Part shown: positions 13,046 to 62,799 of the stretch, piece by piece
How positions within the stretch are numbered: position 1 is the stretch's first letter
How the letters are laid out: each line of letters begins with the position of its first letter
Source: Minisyncoccia bacterium
GTDB taxonomy: Bacteria > Patescibacteriota > Minisyncoccia > Phycocordibacterales > GWA1-40-21
Reading direction: 5' to 3'
Length of the DNA stretch: 64,000 nt
Assembly: GCA_049287185.1 (NCBI GenBank)
Contig: JBAQFI010000012.1
Location: 166,179-230,178 of the forward strand
Notes under the pieces: model-generated
Database searches by the model: none
What the model saw: the letters and a program-made list of their open reading frames with translations, nothing else
What the model was told of the DNA's origin: nothing
Translations under genes and position numbers: made by a program

Positions 13046-14290
13046 TTATTTGTTAATAACTTCCAACGCTTTGATCATCTGTGGATCTCGTCCTTTGACT
13101 CTATCTTCTTCTGTTATTTTTACCTCAAAATCTGGTTTAAGTCCACTCTCGGAAATTGAATAGCCATTTGGGGTAAGCCAACGAGCAATAGTGACCTTCA
13201 AATTACTGTTTTCACCAATTTTTACCACTTCTTGAACAGAACCCTTACCAAAAGTCTTCGTACCAACTATTTGAGCTAAACCGTGATCCCTAAGAGCACC
13301 AGCTAAAATTTCAGAGGCAGAAGCTGAACCCTCATTGGCCAAAATAACTAATTTTAATTTGTCTGTAAAAATTTGATGTCCATTGGCTCGATGAATTTTT
13401 TCGTCTTGCTCATCACTACCAACTTCTCGAACTATTACTTTACCTAATGGTAAAAACCATGAGGCCATGTCCACTGCTGATTCCAGATATCCACCAGGGT
13501 TACCACGTAAATCCAAAATCATCTTATCACTATCAGAAGCCAGAAATTCCTTTAAAGCCCCGCGGAAAAGATTGGCTGATTGAGCGTAAAAATTGTAAAG
13601 ATGAATAATGAAAACTCCATCCTTTTGTTCAGTGGCGACAGTTGGAATATTTATTACATCACGAGTAACTTTTTTTTCTAGATAATCATTATTACCTTCG
13701 CGAGCAATTTTAAAGGTAACCTCTGTCCCCTTTGGTCCACGGATTAATTTTACAGCAGCATCGACAGATATATCCTGAGTACTACTACCATTAATCGTGA
13801 TGATTTTGTCACCCGGCAAAATTCCCGCTCGTTCCGCTGGGGTGCCTTTGAGTGGCGCAATAACCGTCAAAATTCCATCTTTTTGCCCGACTTCCATTCC
13901 TACCCCCTCAAACCCACCACTGATGTCTTCGTCAAAACTCTTAGCTTCTTCAGGTGGCATGAAAACTGTATATGGATCACCAAAAGCTGAGGTCATACCT
14001 TGAATGGCTCCGTATAATTTCTCTTGATTAGTGGCGGGTTTAGCACTTTTTGTGGCCACGAACTTCTTATCTAAAATTTTCCATGTTTCCCAAAATTGTT
14101 TCATATCAATCGAATCGGTAGTAGAACCAGTAATGGTTAAATCAAAATTATTCTTAATATTTAAACCATCAACAGGATTGGTAACATTATTTTGACCCAA
14201 AACAAAACCGCCAAAAAAAGCGCTGGCAAATAAAAAGACTACAAACAAAGGCACGCCATAAACTTTCAGAAAATCTTTTTGCATATGCAT
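13046..14290 (-). CDS. ctpA: C-terminal processing peptidase S41 with PDZ domain, N-terminal membrane anchor
   Basis: PDZ segment and S41 catalytic region (GNPGG, SASASE-like Ser/Lys motif region). Confidence 0.8.
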   Translation of the reverse strand: MHMQKDFLKVYGVPLFVVFLFASAFFGGFVLGQNNVTNPVDGLNIKNNFDLTITGSTTDSIDMKQFWETWKILDKKFVATKSAKPATNQEKLYGAIQGMTSAFGDPYTVFMPPEEAKSFDEDISGGFEGVGMEVGQKDGILTVIAPLKGTPAERAGILPGDKIITINGSSTQDISVDAAVKLIRGPKGTEVTFKIAREGNNDYLEKKVTRDVINIPTVATEQKDGVFIIHLYNFYAQSANLFRGALKEFLASDSDKMILDLRGNPGGYLESAVDMASWFLPLGKVIVREVGSDEQDEKIHRANGHQIFTDKLKLVILANEGSASASEILAGALRDHGLAQIVGTKTFGKGSVQEVVKIGENSNLKVTIARWLTPNGYSISESGLKPDFEVKITEEDRVKGRDPQMIKALEVINK

Positions 14291-14374
14291 GTTATTATCT
14301 CAAAAAAATTGTTTTGATTCAACTGTTGTATGTGTTTGCCCACTTTAAACAAAAAATGTATAATTCATAAATAT

Positions 14375-21007: not shown

Positions 21008-21073
21008 CCCACCCGCAAAAATTTTGACTGAAAAATCTCCGATTTTTAACTAGACAAAACTTTATCGGGCAAG
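21008..21073. repeat. MITE-like module family C, reverse orientation relative to 12970-13034, ends 4 nt before the yqeY-like start codon
   Basis: about 90 percent identical over about 60 bp. Confidence 0.55.
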
Positions 21074-22643: not shown

Positions 22644-22715
22644 GGCCCTATCGTCTAACGGTTAGGACAGAGCCTTCTCAAGGCTTAAATCGGGGTTCGA
22701 TTCCCCGTAGGGTCA
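22644..22715 (+). tRNA. tRNA-Glu (anticodon CUC)
   Basis: manual cloverleaf: acceptor GGCCCTA/TAGGGTC, D-loop AACGGTTA, anticodon loop TTCTCAA, T-loop TTCGATT. Confidence 0.8.
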
Positions 22716-22863
22716 CAAAAATTTACAGGGTATAATTTTTATGATTTCAAAATGCAAAAGTCTTTGCATTTTGAAAGAATCGAAAGACGGAGGCCGACGG
22801 GCCGAGTCGGGGTCGCAAGATTTTTCAGCAGAAAAATACTAGTGACCGAAAGCGTACTCGCGT

Positions 22864-22879
22864 TTCCCCATAGGGTCAC
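22864..22879 (+). repeat. direct repeat of tRNA-Glu 3' end (ttccccatagggtcac vs ttccccgtagggtcac at 22701-22716): att-like scar
   Basis: 16/17 identity 148 bp downstream of the tRNA. Confidence 0.5.
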
Positions 22880-22959
22880 TTTCATGAGCTAACGCAAGAA
22901 GTAGTTATTTGTATTATTGATGTATACACATAACATAATTATTACGTTATAATAAATAT

Positions 22960-23178
22960 ATGAAAAATGAAGAAAAGAAAACTAATCAAATGAGGATATT
23001 TTTGTTGTTTATATTAATATTGATTATAATAAATTTTATTTTTGAACTTAATTTTTCTTATTACATTTGGGTTATACTTTTCTTTTTAGTCTGTTTTCTA
23101 GCTCTTGTCCAAGTGCTTGATAGAAAATTAAGAGCACTGAGTGATCGTATATCAAAATTAGAAAAAAAAGATATATGA
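22960..23178 (+). CDS. small 2-TM membrane protein with charged coiled-coil tail, very AT-rich
   Basis: ORF and hydrophobicity only. Confidence 0.3.
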   Translation: MKNEEKKTNQMRIFLLFILILIIINFIFELNFSYYIWVILFFLVCFLALVQVLDRKLRALSDRISKLEKKDI

Positions 23179-23384
23179 GTTTTATTTATTTACAGAACAT
23201 AAATCCAAGCAAAATATCAGCGATACTCAGTATTATTGTTGCTATTATTATACTTGTGTCTAATTTTTTCCAATGGTGGAATATAACATACGATGGAACA
23301 ATGATTACTAAAAAATGGGTTAAGATTGTTTTTGTAATTTCTATAGTAGTATTAATAATTTCTGGAATATTAGTATTAATTTAA
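23175..23384 (+). CDS. small 2-TM membrane protein, overlaps upstream stop by 4 nt
   Basis: ORF and hydrophobicity only. Confidence 0.3.
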   Translation: MSFIYLQNINPSKISAILSIIVAIIILVSNFFQWWNITYDGTMITKKWVKIVFVISIVVLIISGILVLI

Positions 23385-23476
23385 CAACATATGAGAATGA
23401 TTATTATATTTCATTTAGAAGTAATAAAATAACTTTACTAATCAACTTTAAAATTCATATCTCCTAGCTCAAAAAT

Positions 23477-24022
23477 TTAACCAGACTTTAATTTCCTTCT
23501 CATCTCCTTATATTCTGGAATTACCATGCTAACTAGTTTCCAAAAATCTTTAGAGTGATTAAACTCCTTTAAATGACATAGCTCATGAACAATCACGTAA
23601 TCTCTGACTTCGGCTGGCAAATACTTTATTTTATAATTGAAATTTAAATTTCCTTTACGAGAACAACTGCCCCACCGGCTTTTCTGATTTCGAATGGTAA
23701 TTTTGTTGTATTTTAATCCATAGGTTTGATTAAAAAAACTCAGCCTTTCTTCAACGAGTTTTTGCACTTCATTTTTATATTTTAAAAAATCTTTTTTTGT
23801 ACTGATATGGACAAATCTCATTGGTGATTTTAGAAACTTTCGTACCTTTTCACTTATCCAGGCTTTTTTTTCGAATAAAAACTTTTGTAGTAAATTATTG
23901 TTAAAATTCCTTGGAACAGTAACTACCACTCGCCCATCACAAAACACCGAGATTTTCATTCGCTTGGCACGCAGGCTTTGTCTAAGTTTATACTGAATTG
24001 AATCCAAATTATTTATTGACAT
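23477..24022 (-). CDS. DUF45/YgjP-like zinc-dependent hydrolase (WGSC...HELCHL..NHS.FW)
   Basis: family-diagnostic motifs. Confidence 0.7.
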   Translation of the reverse strand: MSINNLDSIQYKLRQSLRAKRMKISVFCDGRVVVTVPRNFNNNLLQKFLFEKKAWISEKVRKFLKSPMRFVHISTKKDFLKYKNEVQKLVEERLSFFNQTYGLKYNKITIRNQKSRWGSCSRKGNLNFNYKIKYLPAEVRDYVIVHELCHLKEFNHSKDFWKLVSMVIPEYKEMRRKLKSG

Positions 24023-24062
24023 AATTTAAAAACTCCGATTGTTCGGAGTTTTAATACTTGCG

Positions 24063-24377
24063 TTATTCTTCGCAACTACCATTAACGTCATCCCAGAGCT
24101 TTTTCGTACTTATGATTGATTCAAACATATCACCTAGTCTAACCTCGTCAACTTTATTTAGTGGTGTATTCATGTCAGTTAATTTTTCCATTCTTTCACT
24201 AAATTTTCTGTTCAAAACAAGAAAATAATCCCAGAGGTATTTCTTATTACAAGCATCATGAGCTTCCTCAGTATCAAAAATCATCCATGGTAGTGATAAG
24301 ACTCCAGCACTGGCATATTCCCCACTAATTCTATTTGAGATAGAAACAAATCCTCGTGTTTTTATTTTGTATGACAT
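24063..24377 (-). CDS. hypothetical protein
   Basis: ORF only. Confidence 0.35.
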   Translation of the reverse strand: MSYKIKTRGFVSISNRISGEYASAGVLSLPWMIFDTEEAHDACNKKYLWDYFLVLNRKFSERMEKLTDMNTPLNKVDEVRLGDMFESIISTKKLWDDVNGSCEE

Positions 24378-24410
24378 TTTGTCAAAAGTTAAATTAATAA
24401 TAAATAAAAA

Positions 24411-25160
24411 TTAATATTCCGCTGAAACACTAGTAAAACCATCTTTAGTTACCACAACATGGTCCAGTAAATCTATACCGAGCATTTTCCCGGCTTTCAC
24501 CAACTGGTTAGTTATTTCTATGTCTGCCTGGCTTGGTTTTGAATCACCAGATGGGTGGTTATGAACTAATATCATGGCTACTGCGGAATATTCTAGAGCG
24601 GGTTTAAAAACTTCACGTGGATGAATAAGGTTAGAATCAGCGGTTCCGATAGAGATAGTCTCATCATGGATAACTTTATGATGAGCGTTCAAATAAAGGC
24701 CTCTAAGATTCTCTTTTGGTAATTCACGCATATCTTTAGCGTACTCAAAAACATCCTGGGCATTACGTACCGTGGCTAAACCATTGCCGTTCTTTTCAAA
24801 AAATCGGCGACCGAGTTCACAGCAGGCTACGACTTGGAGAGCTTTACTGATTGGAATATCCAATTCCTTTGCTAGGAGGATTGGATCATTGTGATTGGCC
24901 AGTCCCTTTGCACCATATTCTTTTAGAATTCTGTGACACATTTCCATGACTCCCTCTTTTTTAGAGCCAATACCTAAAATTATAGCTAGCAATTCAGGCG
25001 AGGATAGACTCGTAGAGCCAGATTTCAACATTTTTTCTCGCGGCCGTTCATCATCTGGCAAATCATGAATTTTTAAAACATAAGTTTTGGGTTCTTGGTC
25101 CAAAACTAAGCTGTTATCAATAATCCGATAATTACTCCTAACAAGATCTAGTGTTTTCAT
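24411..25160 (-). CDS. radC: RadC-like JAB/MPN domain protein (HNHPSG motif, N-terminal HhH)
   Basis: JAMM motif and RadC architecture. Confidence 0.85.
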   Translation of the reverse strand: MKTLDLVRSNYRIIDNSLVLDQEPKTYVLKIHDLPDDERPREKMLKSGSTSLSSPELLAIILGIGSKKEGVMEMCHRILKEYGAKGLANHNDPILLAKELDIPISKALQVVACCELGRRFFEKNGNGLATVRNAQDVFEYAKDMRELPKENLRGLYLNAHHKVIHDETISIGTADSNLIHPREVFKPALEYSAVAMILVHNHPSGDSKPSQADIEITNQLVKAGKMLGIDLLDHVVVTKDGFTSVSAEY

Positions 25161-25237
25161 AAATTTATGTCAGTATTATATCAGATGTTATTTAAGTTGA
25201 GAAGAAAAAGAGGTCCTAGTAAAACTAGAACCTCAAG

Positions 25238-25492
25238 TTAATAGTGACTGAGCATGGCAACAGTGTTTTCAATGTCCTTCTCGATAATTGACAACTTTTC
25301 TTTCGATGAATGTTCCTTGGCCATTTCCGCTTTTTTCTCGGCTTCAAGTACCTCGAGTAAACTAATAATGGCTTTTTTTGTTGGTACCATAATGGTATCA
25401 CCTGGTTTCCAACCCGACTTTTCGCAAAGTCGACATCCAATACCTAAATACTTACCATGTTGGCAAATATTTTTTTCATTAATATTATCCAT
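25238..25492 (-). CDS. small hypothetical protein with N-terminal Cys/His cluster
   Basis: ORF only. Confidence 0.35.
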   Translation of the reverse strand: MDNINEKNICQHGKYLGIGCRLCEKSGWKPGDTIMVPTKKAIISLLEVLEAEKKAEMAKEHSSKEKLSIIEKDIENTVAMLSHY

Positions 25493-25623
25493 CTTAATCT
25501 CCTTTTTCTTTTTTGAAATTTTAAATAACTATTTAATTGAATAGTAGCAGTAATCTAAAAATTGTAAAGAAAAAGCCCAACTTACAGTCGTAAGTTGGGG
25601 GTTAAAATCTGAAAAGACAAATA

Positions 25624-26121
25624 TTAAGACTCGGGAATAATGACATAAAGTCCGAAAGCACAGTTCCAAACACTCTTCAGTGAGAAGTTGAATCGGCGGA
25701 GACGCAGGCCAAGACAAGTTTCATCAATCCAAGCAACAGAATAATCTGAATTATTTTTACTCCTCAGTAATACAAGAGTGGCTATACCACCAGGATGTAA
25801 CCAGTGAGAATATTCGGTTACAAACTGTCTGATCTGTTCTGGCTCAAGACACAAGTGATCCAAATTATCGCTAGCCGATAAAAAAATATCACGAAAAATT
25901 CCATCTTTTTTATCAAACCGATAAACCTGAGCCCTGGTCTGTGGTGTATAGGTGCCTGGAATATTCCACAGGTTTTGGCTAAAATCCGAATCTATTCCGC
26001 CGGGAAATACCTTTCTAACCTGAAAAAAAGTTTCTTTGCCCGACGTCGTCTTAAGAATAATTTCACTGCCTTTTGAAATACAACTCAAATTTTCAGTGAC
26101 ATATTCAGCTGTTGATATCAT
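25624..26121 (-). CDS. hypothetical protein (LHPGG segment reminiscent of SAM-methyltransferase post-I motif, no GxGxG)
   Basis: ORF only. Confidence 0.35.
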   Translation of the reverse strand: MISTAEYVTENLSCISKGSEIILKTTSGKETFFQVRKVFPGGIDSDFSQNLWNIPGTYTPQTRAQVYRFDKKDGIFRDIFLSASDNLDHLCLEPEQIRQFVTEYSHWLHPGGIATLVLLRSKNNSDYSVAWIDETCLGLRLRRFNFSLKSVWNCAFGLYVIIPES

Positions 26122-26205
26122 TCTCTTTCCTTTCTTTATCTATGTTTATAGTTAACAAGGTTCTAATTTACATATTAGGCTTTTTTCGACTTTTGGCAAG
26201 TATTT

Positions 26206-26619
26206 CTAATTAAAATTAATTTGAAAATTATACATACCCATACCACACAAACCCTTAAGGGACTCCCCAGCCTTTAGTGTACCTAAATCAATAATTGTCT
26301 CCCCGGTTTGAGGCAAAATCTTTTGGTAGCCAATAGCGTTTATTCGAAGAGCAGCAGAACAATCATAGGTACCATTGGTCTTTACTATTAGTTTACTTGG
26401 GATGCCCGCCTGAGCCGTAGATACTCGTGGTGAATAGCCCCCTTTAGCTAGGATAGTTATATATTGCACACCATCTTTGATTTCCACATTTGAGGCAATC
26501 TGATTACCAGTCTTAATGGTTGGAGTATTAGTAACATTTGTTTTCTTACTACCAAAAAACATAATTCCTAAAACAATAACTAGTCCGACGGTAATAATAA
26601 TTAGAACTCTTTTATTCAT
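26206..26619 (-). CDS. membrane-anchored cupredoxin-like putative copper-binding protein (C...C.MGM C-terminus)
   Basis: operon context with copA and Cys/Met motif. Confidence 0.5.
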   Translation of the reverse strand: MNKRVLIIITVGLVIVLGIMFFGSKKTNVTNTPTIKTGNQIASNVEIKDGVQYITILAKGGYSPRVSTAQAGIPSKLIVKTNGTYDCSAALRINAIGYQKILPQTGETIIDLGTLKAGESLKGLCGMGMYNFQINFN

Positions 26620-26623
26620 AAAT

Positions 26624-27637
26624 TTATATATTAAATAGTGGGTTAATAATACCTAAGCCAGCTAGACCACCGAGTAAAGCGAAAATTCCTAGTCCTAAGA
26701 CAACAACGCCAGCCGACTTGAAGAATAATGGAGCATATTTTGATTTCGAAAATGAAACGGAACTAAATGATATTAGAGCTAAAACTGGTAATGTACCTAG
26801 AGAAAATGCCAACATAATAAGTAATCCAGAAATAAATGAACCGCTGGACAAAGCCGATACTTGCATGGACTGTGTAAAGCCACAAGGCAAGAAGAAAGTT
26901 CCTAGTCCAATTATAATTGGCGCCCAGGTAGCATGTTCAATTTTTCTAAAATAATTAAAGAAATTATTTGGCAAGGTTAATTTGTTTCTCTTAAATATTT
27001 CTAAAAGATTTAGACCGAGTAAGATCATAATTAGTGAAGCTAGAAGCCCAATGATAGCTGAAAAAAGAAAACTGATTCCAAAAGCTTCACCAATGAGACC
27101 AAGTATTCCTCCAAGCAAAGCGAAGCCAACAATTCGTCCAAGATGAAATAGGACAAATGTTTTGGTGGCAGATTTATTATCGTCTTGAGCCACTTTAGCG
27201 GACAATGACAAAACCAGTCCCCCAACCACCGCTAAACAACTCGAGAGCGAGGCAATAATACCAATAATTAACGCAGTTAATGGCGTGGTACCACCGCCAA
27301 TTCCAATATTAAGAATCCCAGATTTTTGTAACCAAAAGAATAAAACAAGAACAATCAAACCAATGGGAATTGCCTGCCAAATAGTATTATCAGAAATTTT
27401 CACACCAACTTTTTTCTCTTTGGAAACACTATATCCATGTGATTTAATTTTCTCTGAAATAATTGACTCAAGCTCATCTAAACTTTTTTCACTTTCTGTT
27501 TCGATATCAATAGTTTCATTTTTAATATTTACGTCTACTTTGTCTATTGAATCTAGACCAAGTAAAATATCCTCTATCAATATCTTACATGAGGCGCAAT
27601 GAGTACCAGAAATATGTAAAGTGTGTTTTTTTGTCAT
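26624..27637 (-). CDS. heavy-metal-associated (GTHCASC) domain fused to CcdA/DsbD-like transmembrane domain
   Basis: HMA CxxC motif plus multi-TM domain with Cys pair. Confidence 0.65.
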   Translation of the reverse strand: MTKKHTLHISGTHCASCKILIEDILLGLDSIDKVDVNIKNETIDIETESEKSLDELESIISEKIKSHGYSVSKEKKVGVKISDNTIWQAIPIGLIVLVLFFWLQKSGILNIGIGGGTTPLTALIIGIIASLSSCLAVVGGLVLSLSAKVAQDDNKSATKTFVLFHLGRIVGFALLGGILGLIGEAFGISFLFSAIIGLLASLIMILLGLNLLEIFKRNKLTLPNNFFNYFRKIEHATWAPIIIGLGTFFLPCGFTQSMQVSALSSGSFISGLLIMLAFSLGTLPVLALISFSSVSFSKSKYAPLFFKSAGVVVLGLGIFALLGGLAGLGIINPLFNI

Positions 27638-27666
27638 TATTTTTTAATATTTAATTTGTTGTATTT

Positions 27667-27738
27667 GTCATTCCCGCGCAGGCGGGAATCCAGGTCTTTC
27701 TTTTAATTTTTCTGGATTCCCGCCTGCGCGGGAATGAC
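27667..27738. repeat. IR-A family element, canonical form: gtcattcccgcgcaggcgggaatccag - 18 bp - ctggattcccgcctgcgcgggaatgac, inside the cop operon
   Basis: perfect inverted arms each containing an 8 bp GC hairpin. Confidence 0.65.
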
Positions 27739-27764
27739 AGAGGATAATTTATAGTTAGTAATTA

Positions 27765-30077
27765 TTATAATTTTTTAGCCTTAATTCTTAAAGAGTTGGT
27801 GACCACTGAAACACTGGACAATGCCATAGCCATTCCAGCAAAAACCGGATTAAGTAACAAACCAAATATTGGATAGAATAAACCAGCCGCTAATGGTATT
27901 CCCACTACATTATAGGCAAAAGCCCAAAATAAATTTTGCTTTATACCGCGCATAGTGATCTTTGATAATTTAATGGCTTTAACTATTTTAGAAATGTCGC
28001 CACCTAATAGCGTAATGCCAGCCGATTCAATGGCTACATCCGTGCCAGTACCCATAGCAATACCTACATTCGCTTGAGCGAGAGCTGGAGCATCATTAAC
28101 TCCATCCCCGGCCATAGCCACAACTTTCCCTTCCAATTGCAAAGCTTTAATTTTAGCTAACTTGTCTTGTGGTAAAACATGAGCAATCACTTCATCAATG
28201 CCAACTAGTGAAGCAATGTGTCTAGCCGCTTTTTCATCATCACCGGTGACCATGACAACTTTAATCCCAAGTTTATGTAGGTCAGAAACCGCTTGTATGG
28301 ATTCCGCTTTTATTTCGTCAGCCACCATCACAAAACCAAGAACCTTTTCTTTGGTGGCTAAAATTACCGGCGTCTTACCTTGAGCTGTAAATTCTACAAT
28401 CTTCTCAGTATTGAATGGTAAACCTAAATTATTTATAAGCTTAACATTACCAGCATAATATTCCTTACCACTAACTAGGCCTTTGATACCTTGTCCTTGA
28501 ATGCTGTCAAAATTTGAAGCCTCCGCAAATTTAATATTTTTCTCTTGAGCATAATTTATAATAGCCTGAGCCACTGGATGTTCAGATTTCTTTTCTAGTG
28601 AAGCTAAAATTGAAATCAAATCATTATCATTGAGATTAGAATTATTTTGAATATTTACTAAAGTTGGTTTACCAATAGTGATTGTTCCAGTCTTATCAAC
28701 AATAACTACATTAACTTTATGCAATTCTTCCAGTGTAGCTGCATCCTTAATCAGGATCCCCTCTTTAGCACCTTTTCCTACTCCGACTATGATAGCAGTT
28801 GGTGTAGCCAAGCCTAGAGCGCAGGGACAGGCAATGACCAGAACACTAACAAATGAGACTAAACCAAATGACAGAGCTTGAGAAAAACCAAGTGGTGTCG
28901 TAGCAAACAATAACCAACCACCGAGAGACAGAAATGCTATCACCAAAACAATCGGTACAAAAATACTAGAAATTTTGTCGGCTAGAGCCTGAATCGGAGC
29001 CTTACTACCTTGAGCCTCCTCCACCATTTGAATAATATGAGCTAATAGAGTTTCCGAACCAACTTTAGTGGCTTTAAAAACAAATGAACCGGTGGTGTTT
29101 ATAGTCCCAGATACAACTGAATCACCAACTTTTTTCCCAGACGGCATCGGTTCACCAGTCACCATAGATTCATCAATGAAAGATTTTCCTTCAGTAATAA
29201 TTCCATCAACCGGAATTTTAGCACCCGGTTTTACAATAATTAAATCACCATGGACAACATCATTTACTGAAACTTCAATTTCCTTTCCATCTCGTGTGAC
29301 TAAAGCAGTCTTGGCCTGTAAATTTAGAAGTTTTTCAATAGCATCACCAGTTTTTACTTTTGAGCGAGCCTCAAGATATTTACCAAGGGCAATAAAAGTA
29401 ATAACCACAATCGTAATATCATAATAAGTTATATCAACATTAATATACGGTTTAAGTACACCGGAAAAAGCCGTAACGACAAAGCTATAAATAAAAGCAG
29501 TGGTGGTACCAATACCAATCAAAGTATCCATATTGGCTTTGCCATGGCGAAGAAAACGGTAAAAACCAACCAAATATGGTTTACCAACGACTAATAATAT
29601 ATAGGTGGCCATTATTGGTAAGAGATGGTGGAAGAAAAGTTTTAATGTTCCATCCATTTCAGAAATAATATTGTATTGGATTAAAACATCCCAAATCATT
29701 AAGAAAATGCTAAACAAGGCTAAAGGGATGGCTGATATAACCTTTATCTTCAAATCTTTTATCTCAGCTATTTTCTCTTTTTTGGATTGATTTAAGCCTA
29801 AGTGTTCAGCATGTTCACTGGCAGACATTCCCATCTCCTTGGCTGTTGGTTCAGATGACACTAAAGAATAGCCTAGAGGTTCAAGTTTCTTTGATAAATG
29901 TTCATGACTAGTTTTTGTTTCATCAAAAGCAATCTTGGCTTTTTCTGTGCCAAAATTGACAGCTACAGAAGAAACGCCATCAGTTTTTTTGAGGGTTTTT
30001 TCTATTACACTAACACAAGAGGCACAGTGCATACCTTTTACCCTGACATTAATTTCCTTATTGTTGTTAGTAGACAT
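27765..30077 (-). CDS. copA: copper-translocating P1B-type ATPase (HMA domain, [16 protein letters not shown])
   Basis: all hallmark P-type ATPase motifs. Confidence 0.95.
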
Positions 30078-30080
30078 AAA

Positions 30081-30344
30081 TTACTTACGCTTAAGCTTAT
30101 AAACTTTTAATATCTCGGCTGTTGCCTTTTCAGTTTTTCCACTCTTAATTTGATCTACCAAGCAAGAACCTAGATGATTCTCTAATAGAATATCCTCCAC
30201 ATTAGAAAGTCCCTGCTTCACAGCCGAAATTTGGTTAATAACATTAATACAATAAATATCTTTTTCAATAAGATTTTGAATACCTCTGACCTGACCTTCA
30301 ATTATTTTTAATCTCTGGATCAATTTTGTCTTGTTTTTTTGCAT
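30081..30344 (-). CDS. csoR: CsoR/RcnR-family copper-sensing repressor (Cys...His...Cys ligand set YC...H..C)
   Basis: DUF156 size and ligand pattern; cognate operator upstream. Confidence 0.8.
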   Translation of the reverse strand: MQKNKTKLIQRLKIIEGQVRGIQNLIEKDIYCINVINQISAVKQGLSNVEDILLENHLGSCLVDQIKSGKTEKATAEILKVYKLKRK

Positions 30345-30350
30345 ATGCTT

Positions 30351-30378
30351 ATTATATACCCCCCTGGGGGTATGTCAA
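30351..30378 (-). promoter_or_regulatory. csoR-cop promoter TTGACA-N15-TATAAT with CsoR operator ATACCCCC-CT-GGGGGTAT (30356-30373) in the spacer; -10 ends 6 nt before the ATG (leaderless-like)
   Basis: perfect 8 bp inverted GC-tract half-sites similar to B. subtilis copZA operator; -35 overlaps first bases of MITE-B. Confidence 0.7.
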
Positions 30379-30518
30379 CCCCGTTGTGAGGTTTGGCATC
30401 GTTTTTGAAATTGTGTTTAGTTATCTGTTTTATTATGTATTTGCAAAACAGACCCTAGTATTAAACTAGAGTATGCTTAGACAAAAACAATTTTAATGCC
30501 AAATTCTACAACCGGGTC
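30376..30518. repeat. MITE-like element family B copy 2
   Basis: shares TIRs and about 80 percent of internal sequence with 669-843. Confidence 0.6.
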
Positions 30519-30608
30519 AAGCATTTATTCAAATTGACAAGCATGGGGTGATTTTGTATAAGTAAAGATAGATAAATAGTTCTACTAAAACAAACAAAAG
30601 GAGACAAT

Positions 30609-31391
30609 ATGAAATGGCCAGAGTTGATGTTACTAATTCGGCACGATACGTCGGCCTACAACGTTCTTAAGAATATGAAAAAGAACTGTCCGGTGTATCA
30701 AAAATTCCTGTATGAATTCGAAAATGATCCGACTTCTGAGGTTACCATTGCCTTGGCAAAAGAGGTTCAAAAAAAATGGACTCTAGGTACTGGTGACGCT
30801 GATACAGCTCTGATTGATAGCGAGGCTAAAAAAGCTGAAGAAGTTGGTCGAGCACTAAGATGTGAATATGACGGTAAAATTCCTCACATCATTTTTGTCT
30901 CACCTTACAGGAGAACAAGACTAACTCTCGAGGGTTTGAAACGGGGTTGGCCAGAGCTCAATGAGGTGAAAACAATTGAGGAAGAACGAATACGAGAGCA
31001 AGGACATGGCTTGTCACTTATTTACAGTGACTGGCGAGTATTTCACACACTACATCCAGACCAAAGAATTCTTTTTGGATTGGAGGGTCCCTACTGGTAC
31101 TGTTACCCGCAGGGAGAAAATGTTCCTCTAGTGCGTGAATGAAACCGCTCTTTCATGACCACGGTTGTTCGTGACTTTCCAGAAAAATTTGTTTTCTGTG
31201 TCAGTCACCACTTAGACATACTAAGTATCAGAGCTAACCTCGAACGCTGGAGTGCCGAACAATTCATCAAAGTTGATAATGAGGATAAGCCTATCAACTG
31301 TGGTGTCACGGCCTATTGTGGAAATCCGAAGAAAGGTAAAGAAGGAAGATTTGAGCTTCAGTACTACAATCGGAAATTCTATAAGGATTAG
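30609..31391 (+). pseudogene. histidine-phosphatase (PGM/SixA branch) gene interrupted by a single in-frame TGA at 31140-31142; N-half has RH(D) motif, C-half has VSHH motif; GC-richer than surroundings
   Basis: ORFs 30609-31142 and 31155-31391 are in the same frame separated by one TGA. Confidence 0.5.
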
Positions 31392-31458
31392 AAACACAAA
31401 ACCAACCGCCAGAATGTGAAAGCTTCTGGCGGTTTTTAATTTTCAATTTAACTGTATA

Positions 31459-31486
31459 TTGACAAAATCAATAATATGTGTATAAT
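31459..31486 (+). promoter_or_regulatory. consensus sigma70 promoter TTGACA-N16-TATAAT upstream of membrane protein gene
   Basis: perfect hexamers. Confidence 0.6.
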
Positions 31487-31532
31487 ATAGCAAGAATTAA
31501 GTAGTTTCAATTAAAAAAAGGAGATTTGTACT

Positions 31533-31946
31533 ATGTACAACAGAGTCAAAACAAACGTCGTGAATGTCTTTGCAATGATAATCGGTCTCACCTTCACCTG
31601 TATCATCCTGTCGTGGATTGCTGGAGGCTTCGAAAGTGATATTGGCTATGTTTCCCTGAGTGCTATCTTTCTCTCGTTCACCTCGATCATGATACAGGGT
31701 ATTGGTGCCACGAGAAGGATATATCTTCAGACCTCAATCCTGACTCAAATGTTCAAGGATTCGACACTGATTACATCGACGGCCTTGATGTTAACGTGGG
31801 TCTGGGGATATACACTGATGCACTGGACAATGCTTTCACTACTGAACGCCATTATTGTTTACCTTATCACCCAAATTCTTTTTGTCTATTTCATAAAAAG
31901 AACTACAGTGACGACTGAGAGAATAATACGACAGAAAGTGAGGTAG
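31533..31946 (+). CDS. hypothetical 4-TM membrane protein
   Basis: AAGGAG RBS; hydrophobic segments. Confidence 0.5.
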   Translation: MYNRVKTNVVNVFAMIIGLTFTCIILSWIAGGFESDIGYVSLSAIFLSFTSIMIQGIGATRRIYLQTSILTQMFKDSTLITSTALMLTWVWGYTLMHWTMLSLLNAIIVYLITQILFVYFIKRTTVTTERIIRQKVR

Positions 31947-31954
31947 AGGAACAA

Positions 31955-32003
31955 CTCCACAAATTTAAAACTCCACAGTTTTAAATTTGTGGAGTTTTAA
32001 TTT
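31955..32003. terminator. bidirectional terminator, 18 bp perfect stem ctccacaaatttaaaact/agttttaaatttgtggag
   Basis: seen directly. Confidence 0.7.
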
Positions 32004-32009
32004 ATAAGA

Positions 32010-47802: not shown

Positions 47803-47835
47803 TTGTCGTCCCCGCGCAGGCGGGGATCCAGTCAG
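47803..47835. repeat. solo IR-A-variant arm (gattgtcgtccccgcgcaggcggggatccagtc) preceded by gacaattctgattgtc palindrome and TTTACCCGGTAAA palindrome just upstream of the frr start
   Basis: same composite upstream of murA at 52823-52903. Confidence 0.5.
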
Positions 47836-48953: not shown

Positions 48954-49760
48954 TTACGCCAATCTAGGTAAAATAATCGCAATATACTCCAAAATAATCT
49001 TAAATGATGACGAGGGATCCTCTGAATAGCGGCAATTTTTTTCTAACTCTGTTAGCCATGACAGATTTTCTTTGGTCTGTTTTTTGTCTTTAACTTTTTG
49101 GAAACAAAGTTTAAGTAATTGTCGTAAAAATTCAGAAATATCCCCCCTCGAAATTTCCTCGTCAGTTCTAGCAGATAGAATTTCACCAACTATTTTTAAG
49201 CGGTCAGCGATACTGCCAGCTAAAAATTCAGATTCATTAAACAAACTGGCACCCTCTTTAAAGGCTGGAATTTCTTCATTCACATCAATAATGACTAAAC
49301 GCGATGAAACTGTCGGTAACAAACGACTTGCGGTCGGTAAAATCAAAAAAATTTTGGTATCTGCTGTCGGTTCTTCAAAAAATTTTAACAAGGAATTTTG
49401 GGCATTAATGTGAATGTCATCAGCCATAATGACTATCACTTTGTTTTTGGCTTGTACTGGAAAACTCTGAGCCGGTAAAATTATCTCTTCTAAAATAGTA
49501 TTGTAATTTGGTTTACCTTCGGGATGAAGTTTTAGTAAGTCATATTCTCGTAAAGAAAAATCCGGATGACCAGTGGTATCAAAATCTAGTTTTTCCAATA
49601 GTTCGCTCTTTAATTCAGTTAAAATAGTTTGTTTGTCCCCCACTAAACAATAAGCGTGATGAGAAAAATCACAGTTTAGTTTTGTAATATTTTTTTTCTG
49701 AGATTTTGCAGACATGGAGAGATTATAACATGAACAAATTATGTTTCTCCAGTCTGTCAT
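48954..49760 (-). CDS. holB: DNA polymerase III delta-prime-like clamp-loader subunit (degenerate P-loop, LPTVSSR sensor region); likely starts at internal Met about 49715
   Basis: AAA+ clamp loader box motifs (FEEP, T.FIL). Confidence 0.65.
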   Translation of the reverse strand: MTDWRNIICSCYNLSMSAKSQKKNITKLNCDFSHHAYCLVGDKQTILTELKSELLEKLDFDTTGHPDFSLREYDLLKLHPEGKPNYNTILEEIILPAQSFPVQAKNKVIVIMADDIHINAQNSLLKFFEEPTADTKIFLILPTASRLLPTVSSRLVIIDVNEEIPAFKEGASLFNESEFLAGSIADRLKIVGEILSARTDEEISRGDISEFLRQLLKLCFQKVKDKKQTKENLSWLTELEKNCRYSEDPSSSFKIILEYIAIILPRLA

Positions 49761-49892
49761 TCCCGCGCAGGCGGGAATCCAGAAATAATAATCAATATTA
49801 ATAAAAACTGACTTTCCGTTGTGACCTAATTTTCTTGAGCGTAGCGATTAGAAAATGGAAATGCCCTTGTGGTACGCGGGAATGACAGAGGA
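49757..49892. repeat. IR-A family element with long internal segment
   Basis: left arm perfect, right arm partial. Confidence 0.55.
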
Positions 49893-51079: not shown

Positions 51080-51160
51080 TCTGTCATTCCCGCGCAGGCG
51101 GGAATCCAGGATTAGATCAAAATAAAATTTCTGGATTCCCGCCTGCGCGGGAATGACAAG
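51080..51160. repeat. IR-A family element, canonical two-arm form
   Basis: near-identical to 27667-27738. Confidence 0.65.
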
Positions 51161-54417: not shown

Positions 54418-54606
54418 CTGTCATTCCCGCGCAGGTTGAAATTTGGGATGGGACCCAAATGAAAGACCTTGAGCGTTTTGTCTTCAAAATGTGAAAGGTG
54501 TACTGCTCCTGTAAGGAGAGAAATTCCAGTCCTTCTATGTTAAAACAATTTACGATTCCTAGATTCCCGCCTGCGCGGGAATGACAACACGAATAACAGG
54601 TTGAAA
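54418..54606. repeat. IR-A family element with left arm interrupted after gcgcag by about 115 bp and duplicated caggttgaaattt / tttttctgtcatt flanks (nested or rearranged copy)
   Basis: right arm intact at 54552-54580. Confidence 0.45.
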
Positions 54607-62026: not shown

Positions 62027-62799
62027 ATATTTTAGATTAATAATAAAACTGCCTACTTCTACTTAAATAGATTTAAGATTAAAACTTCATAATATTTGAA
62101 TACGAAAAAAGCCCTATTTACCTCATAGTAGGAATCTTCACAGACCTACCATGAGCTAAACAGGGTTCTTTATGTGAAGATTTTGTTATATACACAAGAC
62201 TTTGAAATAGACGTAATTCAATAGAATTCGACCTTAGAAAGCTTTAAAACTTAAATGAGCAACCGAAATATACATATTCATATTAATAAAGTAATTCTAA
62301 CATAGTCCCAAAAAGTCATCTTAATATCTGAAAGATATTAAATAAAAAATGAAAATAACCTTATAATATAGGGGTTTTCTTATAAAATGTCTGATGTAAC
62401 ACTAATTTAGTTTTGATAGTGGGGGGGGGCGTAGTTAAGTTTAACTTCCCTAGATATCCAAGAGACCCTAGGGTAACCAAACTATTTATGCTTCGGAAAA
62501 TTATTCTCAATTTCAAAATCGAGCGGTCAAAAAAATTTCTAAAATTTTCACAGAAAATAGGGTTGGCAAGGTTAAATAGAAAGGGTAGAATATAAGGGTC
62601 GGTAAAACTAAATATGTGACCTAACCTCCACAGAGTAATTTATGGAGCACGGTCTTAAATCGTAAGCCACAAACAACCTATCATTAGGGCGTGGCTTACG
62701 TTATACCGGGAAACTGGTATATGGCCGCAAGGCCTCCTAGTGGTAGGCTTTTTGTTGCTTATTTTTTAGGATTACTAATTAAAAACAAAAGAAAATTAA

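Follow-up and report, generated by a model that had tools for sequence, protein, structure and literature searches.

The 64,000-nucleotide stretch of DNA analyzed here, hereafter the window (contig JBAQFI010000012.1 of assembly GCA_049287185.1, positions 166,179 to 230,178 of the forward strand, from a Minisyncoccia bacterium), raises the question of why the 3′ end of a tRNA-Glu gene recurs a short distance downstream of that gene. An earlier note, made from the sequence alone, had taken the recurrence for the att core or integration scar of a genomic island, decayed or excised, whose accessory genes would include a copper-efflux operon. Our analysis points to a different answer. We consider it fairly probable (roughly 0.6) that the DNA directly 3′ of tRNA-Glu is a 163-nt non-coding insertion (22717-22879) with the repeat as its right-hand, attR-like boundary, and that this insert is a miniature non-coding insertion element of a large family found across the Patescibacteria.

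The tRNA-Glu gene (anticodon CTC) lies intact at 22644-22716 on the plus strand, as identified by ARAGORN and by the Rfam tRNA family RF00005 (61.8 bits) in agreement with the earlier note. It is 98.7-100% identical to tRNA-Glu of the relatives L124, L125, and L128 (L-numbers denote genome stretches compared with the window), and its CCA end is only partly encoded, the sequence reading ...GGGTCA-C-AAAA. A direct-repeat search delimited two plus-strand copies of the tRNA 3′ end, each 19 nt long. The attL-like copy X1 (22698-22716) lies within the working tRNA and runs from C56 of the T-loop to the first base past the discriminator, and the second copy, X2 (CGTTTCCCCATAGGGTCAC, 22861-22879), matches it at 17 of 19 positions, with both substitutions predicted to break the T arm. 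The recurrence previously placed at 22864-22879 is real, if not exact, since that 16-mer matches at 15/16 positions (G->A). The gap between the repeat copies is 147 nt, and both copies lie upstream of the gene cluster. No third att copy was found across the 64-kb window at up to three mismatches, so the repeat cannot bracket the downstream genes; a 5′ partial tRNA copy was also sought in the window and not found.

The region is AT-rich, short repeats are numerous, and hairpins are common after tRNA genes, so that the repeat and its hairpins might be put down to chance or to an ordinary tRNA terminator region. However, the 16-mer of the tRNA end has two matches in the window at the same tolerance against 0.13 expected, the 184 nt 3′ of tRNA-Glu fold with a z-score of -4.7 relative to shuffles, and the insert matches a model built from 119 other genomes with 91 bits. 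With the pattern matches, the alignment, the model score, and the covariation described below, this explanation is already refuted, and we give it practically no weight.

The insert consists of a series of recognizable parts, all read on the plus strand. Its spacer (22717-22776) contains a TATAAT-like hexamer (22731-22736) and the AT-rich hairpin arms 22736-22758 and 22763-22785, the 3′ arm of which extends into the conserved core. Similar AT-rich hairpins abut the core in L005, L041, L086, and L105, where the TATAAT is not kept. The conserved three-helix core (22777-22847) is matched by a covariance model, R1. At its 5′ end, GAATCG is the remnant of the 5′ strand of helix P1, designated X′, which is followed by the junction AAAG. 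Helix P2 then reads GAC / GGA / GGCC-GACG-GGCC / GA / GTC and is followed by the junction GGGG, while P3 is a hairpin of 16 bp that contains a bulged A and is capped by an AGCA loop, and the 3′ end of the core is GTGACC. Between the core and X2, sequence comparison revealed an optional small hairpin module (GA-AAGCGTACTCGCG, 22848-22862), and the optional hairpin (AAGYGTACTCRCG) occupies the same place in L006, L010, L018, L062, L101, L118, and L119. The R1 model was trained on 120 sequences comprising the window copy and 119 from other genomes, and its sole match in the window (22767-22848, 91 bits, E 9e-24) covers the full model length, 1-82. The TATAAT box and the hairpins that had been described between the repeat copies were thus confirmed, the hairpins at 22790-22846, and the statement that no open reading frame (ORF) lies there holds only insofar as the 46-49-aa mechanical ORFs overlap the conserved RNA-like structure. 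The host tRNA gene is not interrupted by the insert. Terminal inverted repeats (TIRs) were sought in the insert and none were found, and the duplication consists of about 20 nt of the tRNA end, not of a short target-site duplication.

In Rfam 15 at E ≤ 10, the copies of the window, L001, and L095 gave no family match to the element, the chance matches to microRNA-precursor and Pseudomonas rpsL-leader families falling far below the gathering score, and at the gathering threshold no family overlapped the copies in 18 loci. Known ribozymes, transfer-messenger RNA (including permuted forms), Y-RNA-like RNAs, group I introns, riboswitches, and 6S or signal recognition particle RNAs were accordingly rejected at the sensitivity of Rfam. 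Three further candidates were dismissed by eye: the hammerhead, for which GA-stem-GA is present but CUGANGA is not, the K-turn, where the bulge is 1 nt instead of 3, and a 5S-derived origin, considered for a GTGAC-AGTAG microhomology, which did not fit either.

The first relatives were found via homologues of RmuC, and they carry the same sequence after tRNA-Glu, with compensatory changes in the 16-bp hairpin (L001). A pattern made of the P3 hairpin alone, GGGGTNGCNAG-N6-CAGCAG-N6-ACTNGTGAC, was then used to search one species-representative genome set, and it matched at least 119 genome stretches. Among the matches listed, every one with a named taxon belongs to the Candidate Phyla Radiation (CPR). 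The named groups are Paceibacterota, Nomura-, Zambryski-, Vogel-, Adler-, and Kaiserbacteria, Saccharibacteria, Berkelbacteria, and Levyibacteriota, one match is labeled WS2, and the remaining ones carry generic labels such as "uncultured bacterium."

When the 120 distinct copies were aligned, the P2 half, which lies outside the search pattern, was also conserved and covarying. The family consensus comprises the AAAG junction, P2a (GNC/GNC), an internal loop (GGA/GA), a P2b of 4 bp whose loop resembles GACG, the GGGG junction, and the long P3 with its AGCA loop. The middle pair of P2a is CG in 69 copies, AU in 30, GC in 9, and UA in 8, and compensatory changes occur in 12 of the 21 pairs. Paired cells reach 97.1%, compared with 81.4% after shuffling, and the covariation score of 0.405 was not attained in any of 500 shuffles (0.116 when shuffled, 0.05-0.09 with slid partners). 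At the free position 72-96 the commonest pair is G-U (91/120), which points to the tRNA-sense strand as the one that folds.

Flanking repeats were scored by local alignment, which allows for the displacement of the repeat by the optional hairpin. A co-oriented, intact tRNA gene lies within 130 nt upstream in 67 of the 115 evaluable copies, with more than 25 anticodons represented among the flanking tRNAs. In 40 of these 67, X2 duplicates 12 nt or more from the 3′ end of the tRNA, with a median length of 20 nt and a median identity of 100%, across many isotypes. Its start lies 19 nt ahead of the tRNA end in 24 of the 40, and its stop at -1 to +3 of that end. The X2 of the window has the same start, and its core motif begins 92 nt past tRNA-Glu on the same strand, the family median being 89 nt. 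Another 11 of the 115 copies are situated a short way upstream of a tRNA gene, the 5′ part of which they duplicate, and eight have 5S-like flanks next to an intact 5S gene. The tRNA and 5S genes adjoining the copies are intact. The full layout, tRNA[...X1]-short hairpin-X′-core-X2 with X′ as the reverse complement of X, is clear in L095, L018, L044, L091, and others, and the window matches it with X1, the AT-rich spacer hairpin, core, optional hairpin, and X2. At the 5S sites of L083, L088, L090, L116, and L121, an intact 5S rRNA gene is accompanied, about 60-380 nt farther on, by another copy of 5S, whether partial or complete, in which the mini-insert replaces helix IV/loop D and the terminal GTGAC of the insert merges with the loop-E strand of the 5S (GTGAC-AGTAG).

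The distribution of the copies also speaks to mobility. Up to six copies occur per 8 kb (L030), L052 contains a perfect tandem unit, and in L120 one copy is nested inside the P2 loop of another, among decayed tRNA-Glu fragments upstream of the intact gene. Related modules sit within the hairpin loop of the ends of MITEs (miniature inverted-repeat transposable elements) in L030 and in the window itself (54419-54586). L128 has an empty site, in which no insert is present and an identical tRNA-Glu runs into CCA and an ordinary terminator. In L125 (4490-4860), two tandem units follow an identical tRNA-Glu and keep the X1-hairpin-X′-...-X2 frame. L003 and L126 carry a variant core after tRNA-Glu, and an additional D-loop-type copy is found on the 5′ side of tRNA-Glu in L001 and L126. 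The core is conserved with compensatory changes, and the family displays tandem copies, nesting, an orientation locked to the host gene, and presence or absence at the same tRNA-Glu.

Several related observations were made on these modules. The two cores of L125 are unrelated to R1 and to each other, and a hairpin at the T-stem/acceptor junction divides their X′. What the insertion mechanism needs may be the frame rather than the core. Within the MITE of the window, a GGTTGAAATTTGGGATGGGACCCAAATGAAAGACC module (54436-54475) occupies the loop of the MITE end-hairpin, and the same module follows a tRNA-Glu fragment in L001 (8618-8652). Hairpins of the same type with GGGACCC loops and other flanks form the 5′ part of loop-type mini-insert copies, which suggests a wider zoo of hairpin-loop-targeting modules. 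Relative to RmuC/YqeY, the tRNA-Glu(CTC) with its inserts has the opposite orientation in about half of the relatives (L001, L124, L125, L128, and L129, as opposed to the window, L003, and L126), and inverted X/X′ repeats might mediate these flips.

The layout is exactly the outcome expected of Campbell-type integration, in which a small circular molecule bearing a single X recombines with the tRNA gene by one crossover. The element would bring a replacement gene end and displace the original one, and the mini-element's own attL and attR would be X1 and X2. Further rounds of integration into the regenerated site would account for the tandem units. The enzyme may be a host recombinase, or homologous recombination may suffice, and the free form could be either DNA or a small circular RNA. 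The window insert may be an ageing, possibly decaying copy, an appearance that stems from its X′ of about 6 nt and from the two substitutions in X2 that would break the T arm.

As a more speculative extension, which we hold only tentatively and think on balance doubtful, these inserts could form an undescribed class of possibly circular, RNA-structured mobile elements of about 150 nt in the Patescibacteria, perhaps a new ribozyme or a viroid- or retrozyme-like agent. Such elements would home into exposed hairpin loops of stable RNAs (the tRNA T-loop and D-loop, a 5S loop) and into their own P2 and MITE loops, with a target-copying stem so that integration regenerates the single-copy gene.

A number of points weigh against the insertion-element reading. 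P1 is weak in the window copy, where X′ has shrunk to about 6 nt (GAATCG/CGA^TTC) and the helix reaches -10.8 kcal/mol compared with a family median of -14.9. Across the family, P1 complementarity is only modestly better within copies than between them (-14.9 vs. -11.1 kcal/mol), a contrast that is small because T arms resemble one another. The empty site in L128 has non-homologous DNA downstream, for which reason the insertion boundaries derive from the repeats only. We saw no excised or circular form, no empty/filled pair with homologous flanks, and no mobilizing enzyme. The core identity of 62/65 nt between the window (Paceibacterota) and L024 (Saccharibacteria) fits horizontal spread and, equally, strong constraint on a host RNA. 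Since the genome sample was selected by the motif, the frequencies given above are not population estimates. Finally, absence from the literature searched is weak evidence of novelty: no description of the insert family was found there, and that literature covered only group I introns and rRNA insertions.

Some of these points would suit a non-mobile host module, a non-coding RNA co-transcribed with a tRNA or 5S gene, which we judge unlikely. It could be a stable RNA resembling a tRNA minihelix, or a switch in P1, with X′ pairing to X1 or to a decoy X2 and so controlling tRNA folding or processing. The strict co-orientation, the spacing of 40-105 nt from tRNAs, the RNA-type covariation with G-U pairs on the sense strand, and the extreme conservation of the core across classes are all expected of such an RNA. 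X′ is able to pair with X1 or X2, with predicted folds using either, X2 ends where the tRNA would end, and no mobility gene is associated with the copies. Indeed, when 1102 ORFs from 119 loci were clustered, no protein family was enriched near the copies, the top cluster being present in nine loci only, so that no linked integrase, reverse transcriptase, or transposase was evident. Two patterns of the core had no match in 2.9 million viral contigs, so that nothing hints at a parent carried by phages. Metagenome contigs, searched with an exact junction pattern of 26 nt, likewise gave no match. However, a host RNA would require matched X′/X2 pairs to have arisen or been transferred independently at more than 25 tRNAs and at 5S. 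It also leaves unexplained the nesting in the P2 loop and in MITE hairpins, the tandem arrays, the decayed copies in L003 and the window, the empty site at an identical tRNA-Glu, and the units that have the common X1-hairpin-X′-...-X2 frame with unrelated cores.

The genes beyond X2 bear on the island reading, in which a classical integrase-type island at tRNA-Glu, decayed or excised, would have left the 16-nt repeat as its scar and the downstream genes as its cargo. The tRNA linkage and the significant direct repeat favor it, and so does the comparison with L001, L003, and L126 (RmuC 89-92% identical). In these relatives the flanks RmuC-YqeY and murF-ftsI-rsmH-mraZ are syntenic, yet 22850-32004 has no counterpart and 0.3-2 kb of other content stands there instead. 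Two MITEs lie within the cluster, and in another genome (L131) the csoR-copA pair is located within a defence island. On the other hand, both repeats are upstream of the supposed cargo with no third copy, precise excision would not leave two att copies, and the DNA between the repeats is a full member of a conserved family. Pfam searches of every ORF of at least 65 aa in the interval 19.8-33.5 kb gave no match to an integrase, a recombinase, or a transposase, as the earlier note had also remarked for integrases. The GC content of the window is about 36%, that of the cluster genes is 0.31-0.40 against a window mean of 0.368 ± 0.032, and GC at third codon positions is ordinary. In tetranucleotide distance the cluster ranks 5th of 57 compositional windows. 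The composition shifts that had been claimed are therefore weak, with only two tiny ORFs (0.22-0.24) standing out.

In the closest relative, L130, window segments 25131-30378 and 30516-31390 are collinear at 79-81% identity and are followed by murF, the order being radC...165aa-cupredoxin-HMA/DsbD-copA-csoR-HisPhos-murF. This stretch comes from a sample that yielded a 96% identical RmuC, its CopA is 88% identical, and its contig ends inside radC, before the tRNA-proximal part of the cluster would be reached. The homologues of CopA number more than 100 at 77-88% identity, and all named ones belong to Paceibacterota, Parcubacteria, or other Patescibacteria; the close RmuC and CopA homologues are labeled Paceibacterota or Taylorbacteria, and the RmuC and CopA of the window match proteins of an NCBI "Minisyncoccia bacterium" metagenome-assembled genome at 100% identity. 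Conserved gene order, which had been named as the observation that would speak for core rather than accessory genes, was thus found in part, with radC to murF collinear in L130 and absent in L001, L003, and L126. The commonness of CopA in the clade and the collinearity with L130 indicate that the cluster is an older, lineage-level filling of a hotspot. Within the gap between RmuC-YqeY and murF the relatives always have tRNA-Glu, the orientation of which flips. We conclude that the cluster is accessory at the genus scale within a rearrangement hotspot and is not demonstrable as an integrated unit. What survives of the tRNA-linked island is that the DNA from the tRNA to murF is accessory; the repeat does not bracket the cluster, no integrase is present, and the composition is near normal. 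Similarly, the att interpretation is right insofar as the repeat behaves like an att-type duplicate of the tRNA 3′ end, while the scar does not hold, given that the inter-repeat DNA is a complete family member. As the earlier note stated it, the island is largely refuted, and we regard it as very unlikely.

The cluster begins with two AT-rich ORFs for small membrane proteins of 72 and 69 aa (22960-23384, plus strand, GC 0.22-0.24). They had been called holin-like, a label that did not hold: there was no PHROG match, Pfam gave only DUF4181/2TM below threshold, and no endolysin is nearby. The remaining annotation of the earlier note (DUF45, RadC, cupredoxin, HMA/CcdA, copA, and csoR) agrees with our Pfam and NCBIfam results. 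On the minus strand follow a YgjP/DUF45 metallopeptidase-like gene (23477-24022, PF01863, 1e-46), an ORF for a hypothetical protein of 104 aa (24063-24377), a full-length RadC gene (24411-25160, PF04002 and PF20582, with NCBIfam PRK00024 at 201.6 vs. a cut-off of 180), and genes for hypothetical proteins of 84 aa (25238-25492) and 165 aa (25624-26121), neither of which matched a family in Pfam, PHROG, or NCBIfam. Genes for 165 aa (13457-13954) and 88 aa (14080-14346) stand at the same place beside the cop genes in L130. The 84-aa protein is rich in cysteine (CxHG...GCRxCE) and is also encoded near a DUF45 gene in L132 (349-603). The closest DUF45 relative, at 72%, is that of L132, which has other neighbors and no tRNA, and further DUF45 relatives are too distant, or their contigs too short, to show tRNA-proximal synteny. 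A contig search with the 133-aa protein encoded upstream of the tRNA returned no relative, and exact look-ups of the YqeY protein and of the 100% identical RmuC gave no record.

Two side observations concern neighboring DNA. The reading frame of the histidine-phosphatase gene (30609-31391, plus strand) is interrupted by a TGA at 31140-31142. At this codon the closest relative reads CGA (Arg), and its protein of 260 aa is about 85% identical otherwise. The TGA may reflect a sequencing error, a nonsense mutation, or a pseudogene. Between RmuC and YqeY, an intergenic segment of 62 nt (21011-21072) is 95% identical to L130 7437-7498, just downstream of murF, with the surrounding DNA about 79% identical. 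This segment may be a small mobile or promoter element, or a trace of an ancestral adjacency of murF and YqeY.

The copper module occupies the minus strand at the distal end of the cluster. It comprises csoR (30081-30344, PF02583 at 84.1 bits vs. a cut-off of 22.8), the P1B-1 ATPase gene copA (27765-30077, TIGR01511 at 601.6 vs. 397), an HMA-DsbD_2/CcdA-like membrane protein gene (26624-27637, Pfam), and a cupredoxin-like gene (26206-26619, Pfam). The gap between csoR and copA is 3 nt, and the cop gene order is common to the window and L130. In the CopA translation we read the N-terminal CxxC, CPC, DKTGT, YN, and MxxSS motifs, and in that of CsoR the ligand set C32/H57/C61; the NCBIfam RicR model scored below its cut-off on CsoR. 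A promoter scan located a sigma-70 promoter, TTGACA-16-TATAAT (12/12), at 30351-30378 on the minus strand, the spacer of which is filled by a putative operator, ATACCCCC-AG-GGGGGTAT (30356-30373). Across the window the pattern ATACCCCC-NN-GGGGGTAT occurs only here, against an expectation of 0.00. L130 has an identical promoter and operator, and in L131 the operator is also kept. The csoR ATG (30344) lies 7 nt past the -10 in the window and 6 nt past it in L130. Because the intervening sequence differs between the two, a leaderless start is supported, and the csoR transcript is probably leaderless. The operator between -35 and -10 and the nearly leaderless start had both been recognized correctly in the earlier note. 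By analogy with characterized CsoR systems, binding of Cu(I) to C32/H57/C61 is predicted to release the CsoR repressor. The csoR-copA module is canonical and common in the clade.

Two MITE families occur in and around these genes. A palindromic MITE of 74 nt with perfect 28-nt TIRs (TGTCATTCCCGCGCAGGCGGGAATCCAG), found by an inverted-repeat search, lies between copA and the HMA-DsbD gene (27666-27739, no strand assigned). Further copies are present at 51082-51158 and 54419-54586, together with solo ends at 47804-47831 and 49755-49782. Each end of this MITE is itself a hairpin, and similar ends (TGTCATCCTCG...GGATCC) occur in the Saccharibacteria stretch L030. MITE-B (137 nt, 30379-30515, no strand assigned, second copy at 672-839), with inverted ends of the CCGGTTGT type, stands in the -35 TTGAC of the csoR promoter at the region end, where it had been placed before. 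Its target TTGAC is duplicated at 30374-30378 and 30516-30520 (a 5-nt target duplication), and for this reason the -35 (TTGACA next to the operator) is regenerated. MITE-B is precisely absent in L130, in which the alignment breaks at 30378/30516.

Elsewhere in the window, a LOOT RNA (Rfam RF03000, 73.2 bits, above the gathering score) was detected at 62618-62735 on the plus strand. A second LOOT RNA is found in L097 (1323-1446), an unrelated CPR locus that also has a mini-insert.

In Patescibacteria the genomes are tiny and the tRNA and rRNA genes are present as single copies, yet these genes are unusually prone to intron invasion. If a non-coding element does park beside them in hundreds of species, rebuild the displaced end, and remain conserved across classes, it would offer RNA-like DNA, whether selfish or regulatory, a novel means of persisting in a minimal genome. 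The inserts create partial tRNA and 5S copies and repeats that could confuse annotation (partial genes, false "att sites") and break assemblies; the contigs of the closest relative end on either side of the region. In the window they coincide with a rearrangement hotspot, in which tRNA-Glu flips and the gap to murF is variably filled. The copper operon, a textbook CsoR-CopA system, adds little, and its interest is local, residing in the MITE that landed in, and regenerated, a -35 box. What appears new is the insert family, for which we could not find a match in Rfam 15 or a description in the literature searched, whereas the copper genes are ordinary.

Among known systems, the copper module resembles CsoR-regulated copper efflux as represented by copZA of B. 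subtilis and the cso operon of M. tuberculosis. It shares with them a CsoR with C-H-C ligands, a pseudo-palindromic operator that is rich in GC and overlaps with the promoter, and a CopA of the P1B-1 type carrying CxxC, CPC, YN, and MxxSS. Unlike them, it has csoR as the first gene of the unit, probably leaderless, lacks a free CopZ, adds the HMA-DsbD_2 and cupredoxin genes, and contains one MITE in the -35 and another after copA.

R2 in 28S rDNA, retrozymes, and viroid-like small circular RNAs are co-transcribed with a stable-RNA gene and processed by their own ribozyme. By analogy, the mini-insert is site-specific in stable-RNA genes, has a compact branched fold, and occurs in tandem copies, and its co-orientation with the host gene implies co-transcription. 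It differs in that neither a reverse transcriptase nor any known ribozyme motif was found and a circular form was not seen; any catalysis is hypothetical.

The group I introns that Patescibacteria harbor in tRNA genes lie in the anticodon loop (such as position 35/36), belong to subgroup IA, and are self-splicing (Nakagawa et al., 2026, PMC13011429). Like them, the mini-inserts are structured RNAs of the same phylum that invade tRNA genes, mostly without homing endonucleases. They differ in leaving the gene intact with a duplicated end, in having a core of about 70 nt, and in giving no Intron_gpI match.

With MITEs and repeats resembling repetitive extragenic palindromes, the mini-insert has in common that it is short, non-coding, multi-copy, strongly structured, and sometimes nested. 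However, it has neither TIRs nor a short target-site duplication, about 20 nt of the host RNA gene end being duplicated instead. In contrast to MITEs, including those of the window itself, its orientation is locked to the host gene and its core is conserved across classes.

Phages, integrative and conjugative elements, and islands that target tRNA genes enter the 3′ part of the gene, and integrase-less remnants of such elements are known as the cis-mobilizable elements of streptococci. The mini-insert departs from this model in its unit of about 110-220 nt, which has no cargo and no integrase nearby, in its covarying RNA-like core and inverted target copy X′, in its additional occurrence 5′ of tRNAs, at 5S, and in hairpin loops of other repeats, and in having no match among the viral contigs. 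The resemblance lies in the use of the segment from the T-loop to the 3′ end, in the replacement end that keeps the tRNA intact, in the displaced end that stays behind as a direct repeat, and in the tandem accretion at the regenerated site (L125 and L052).

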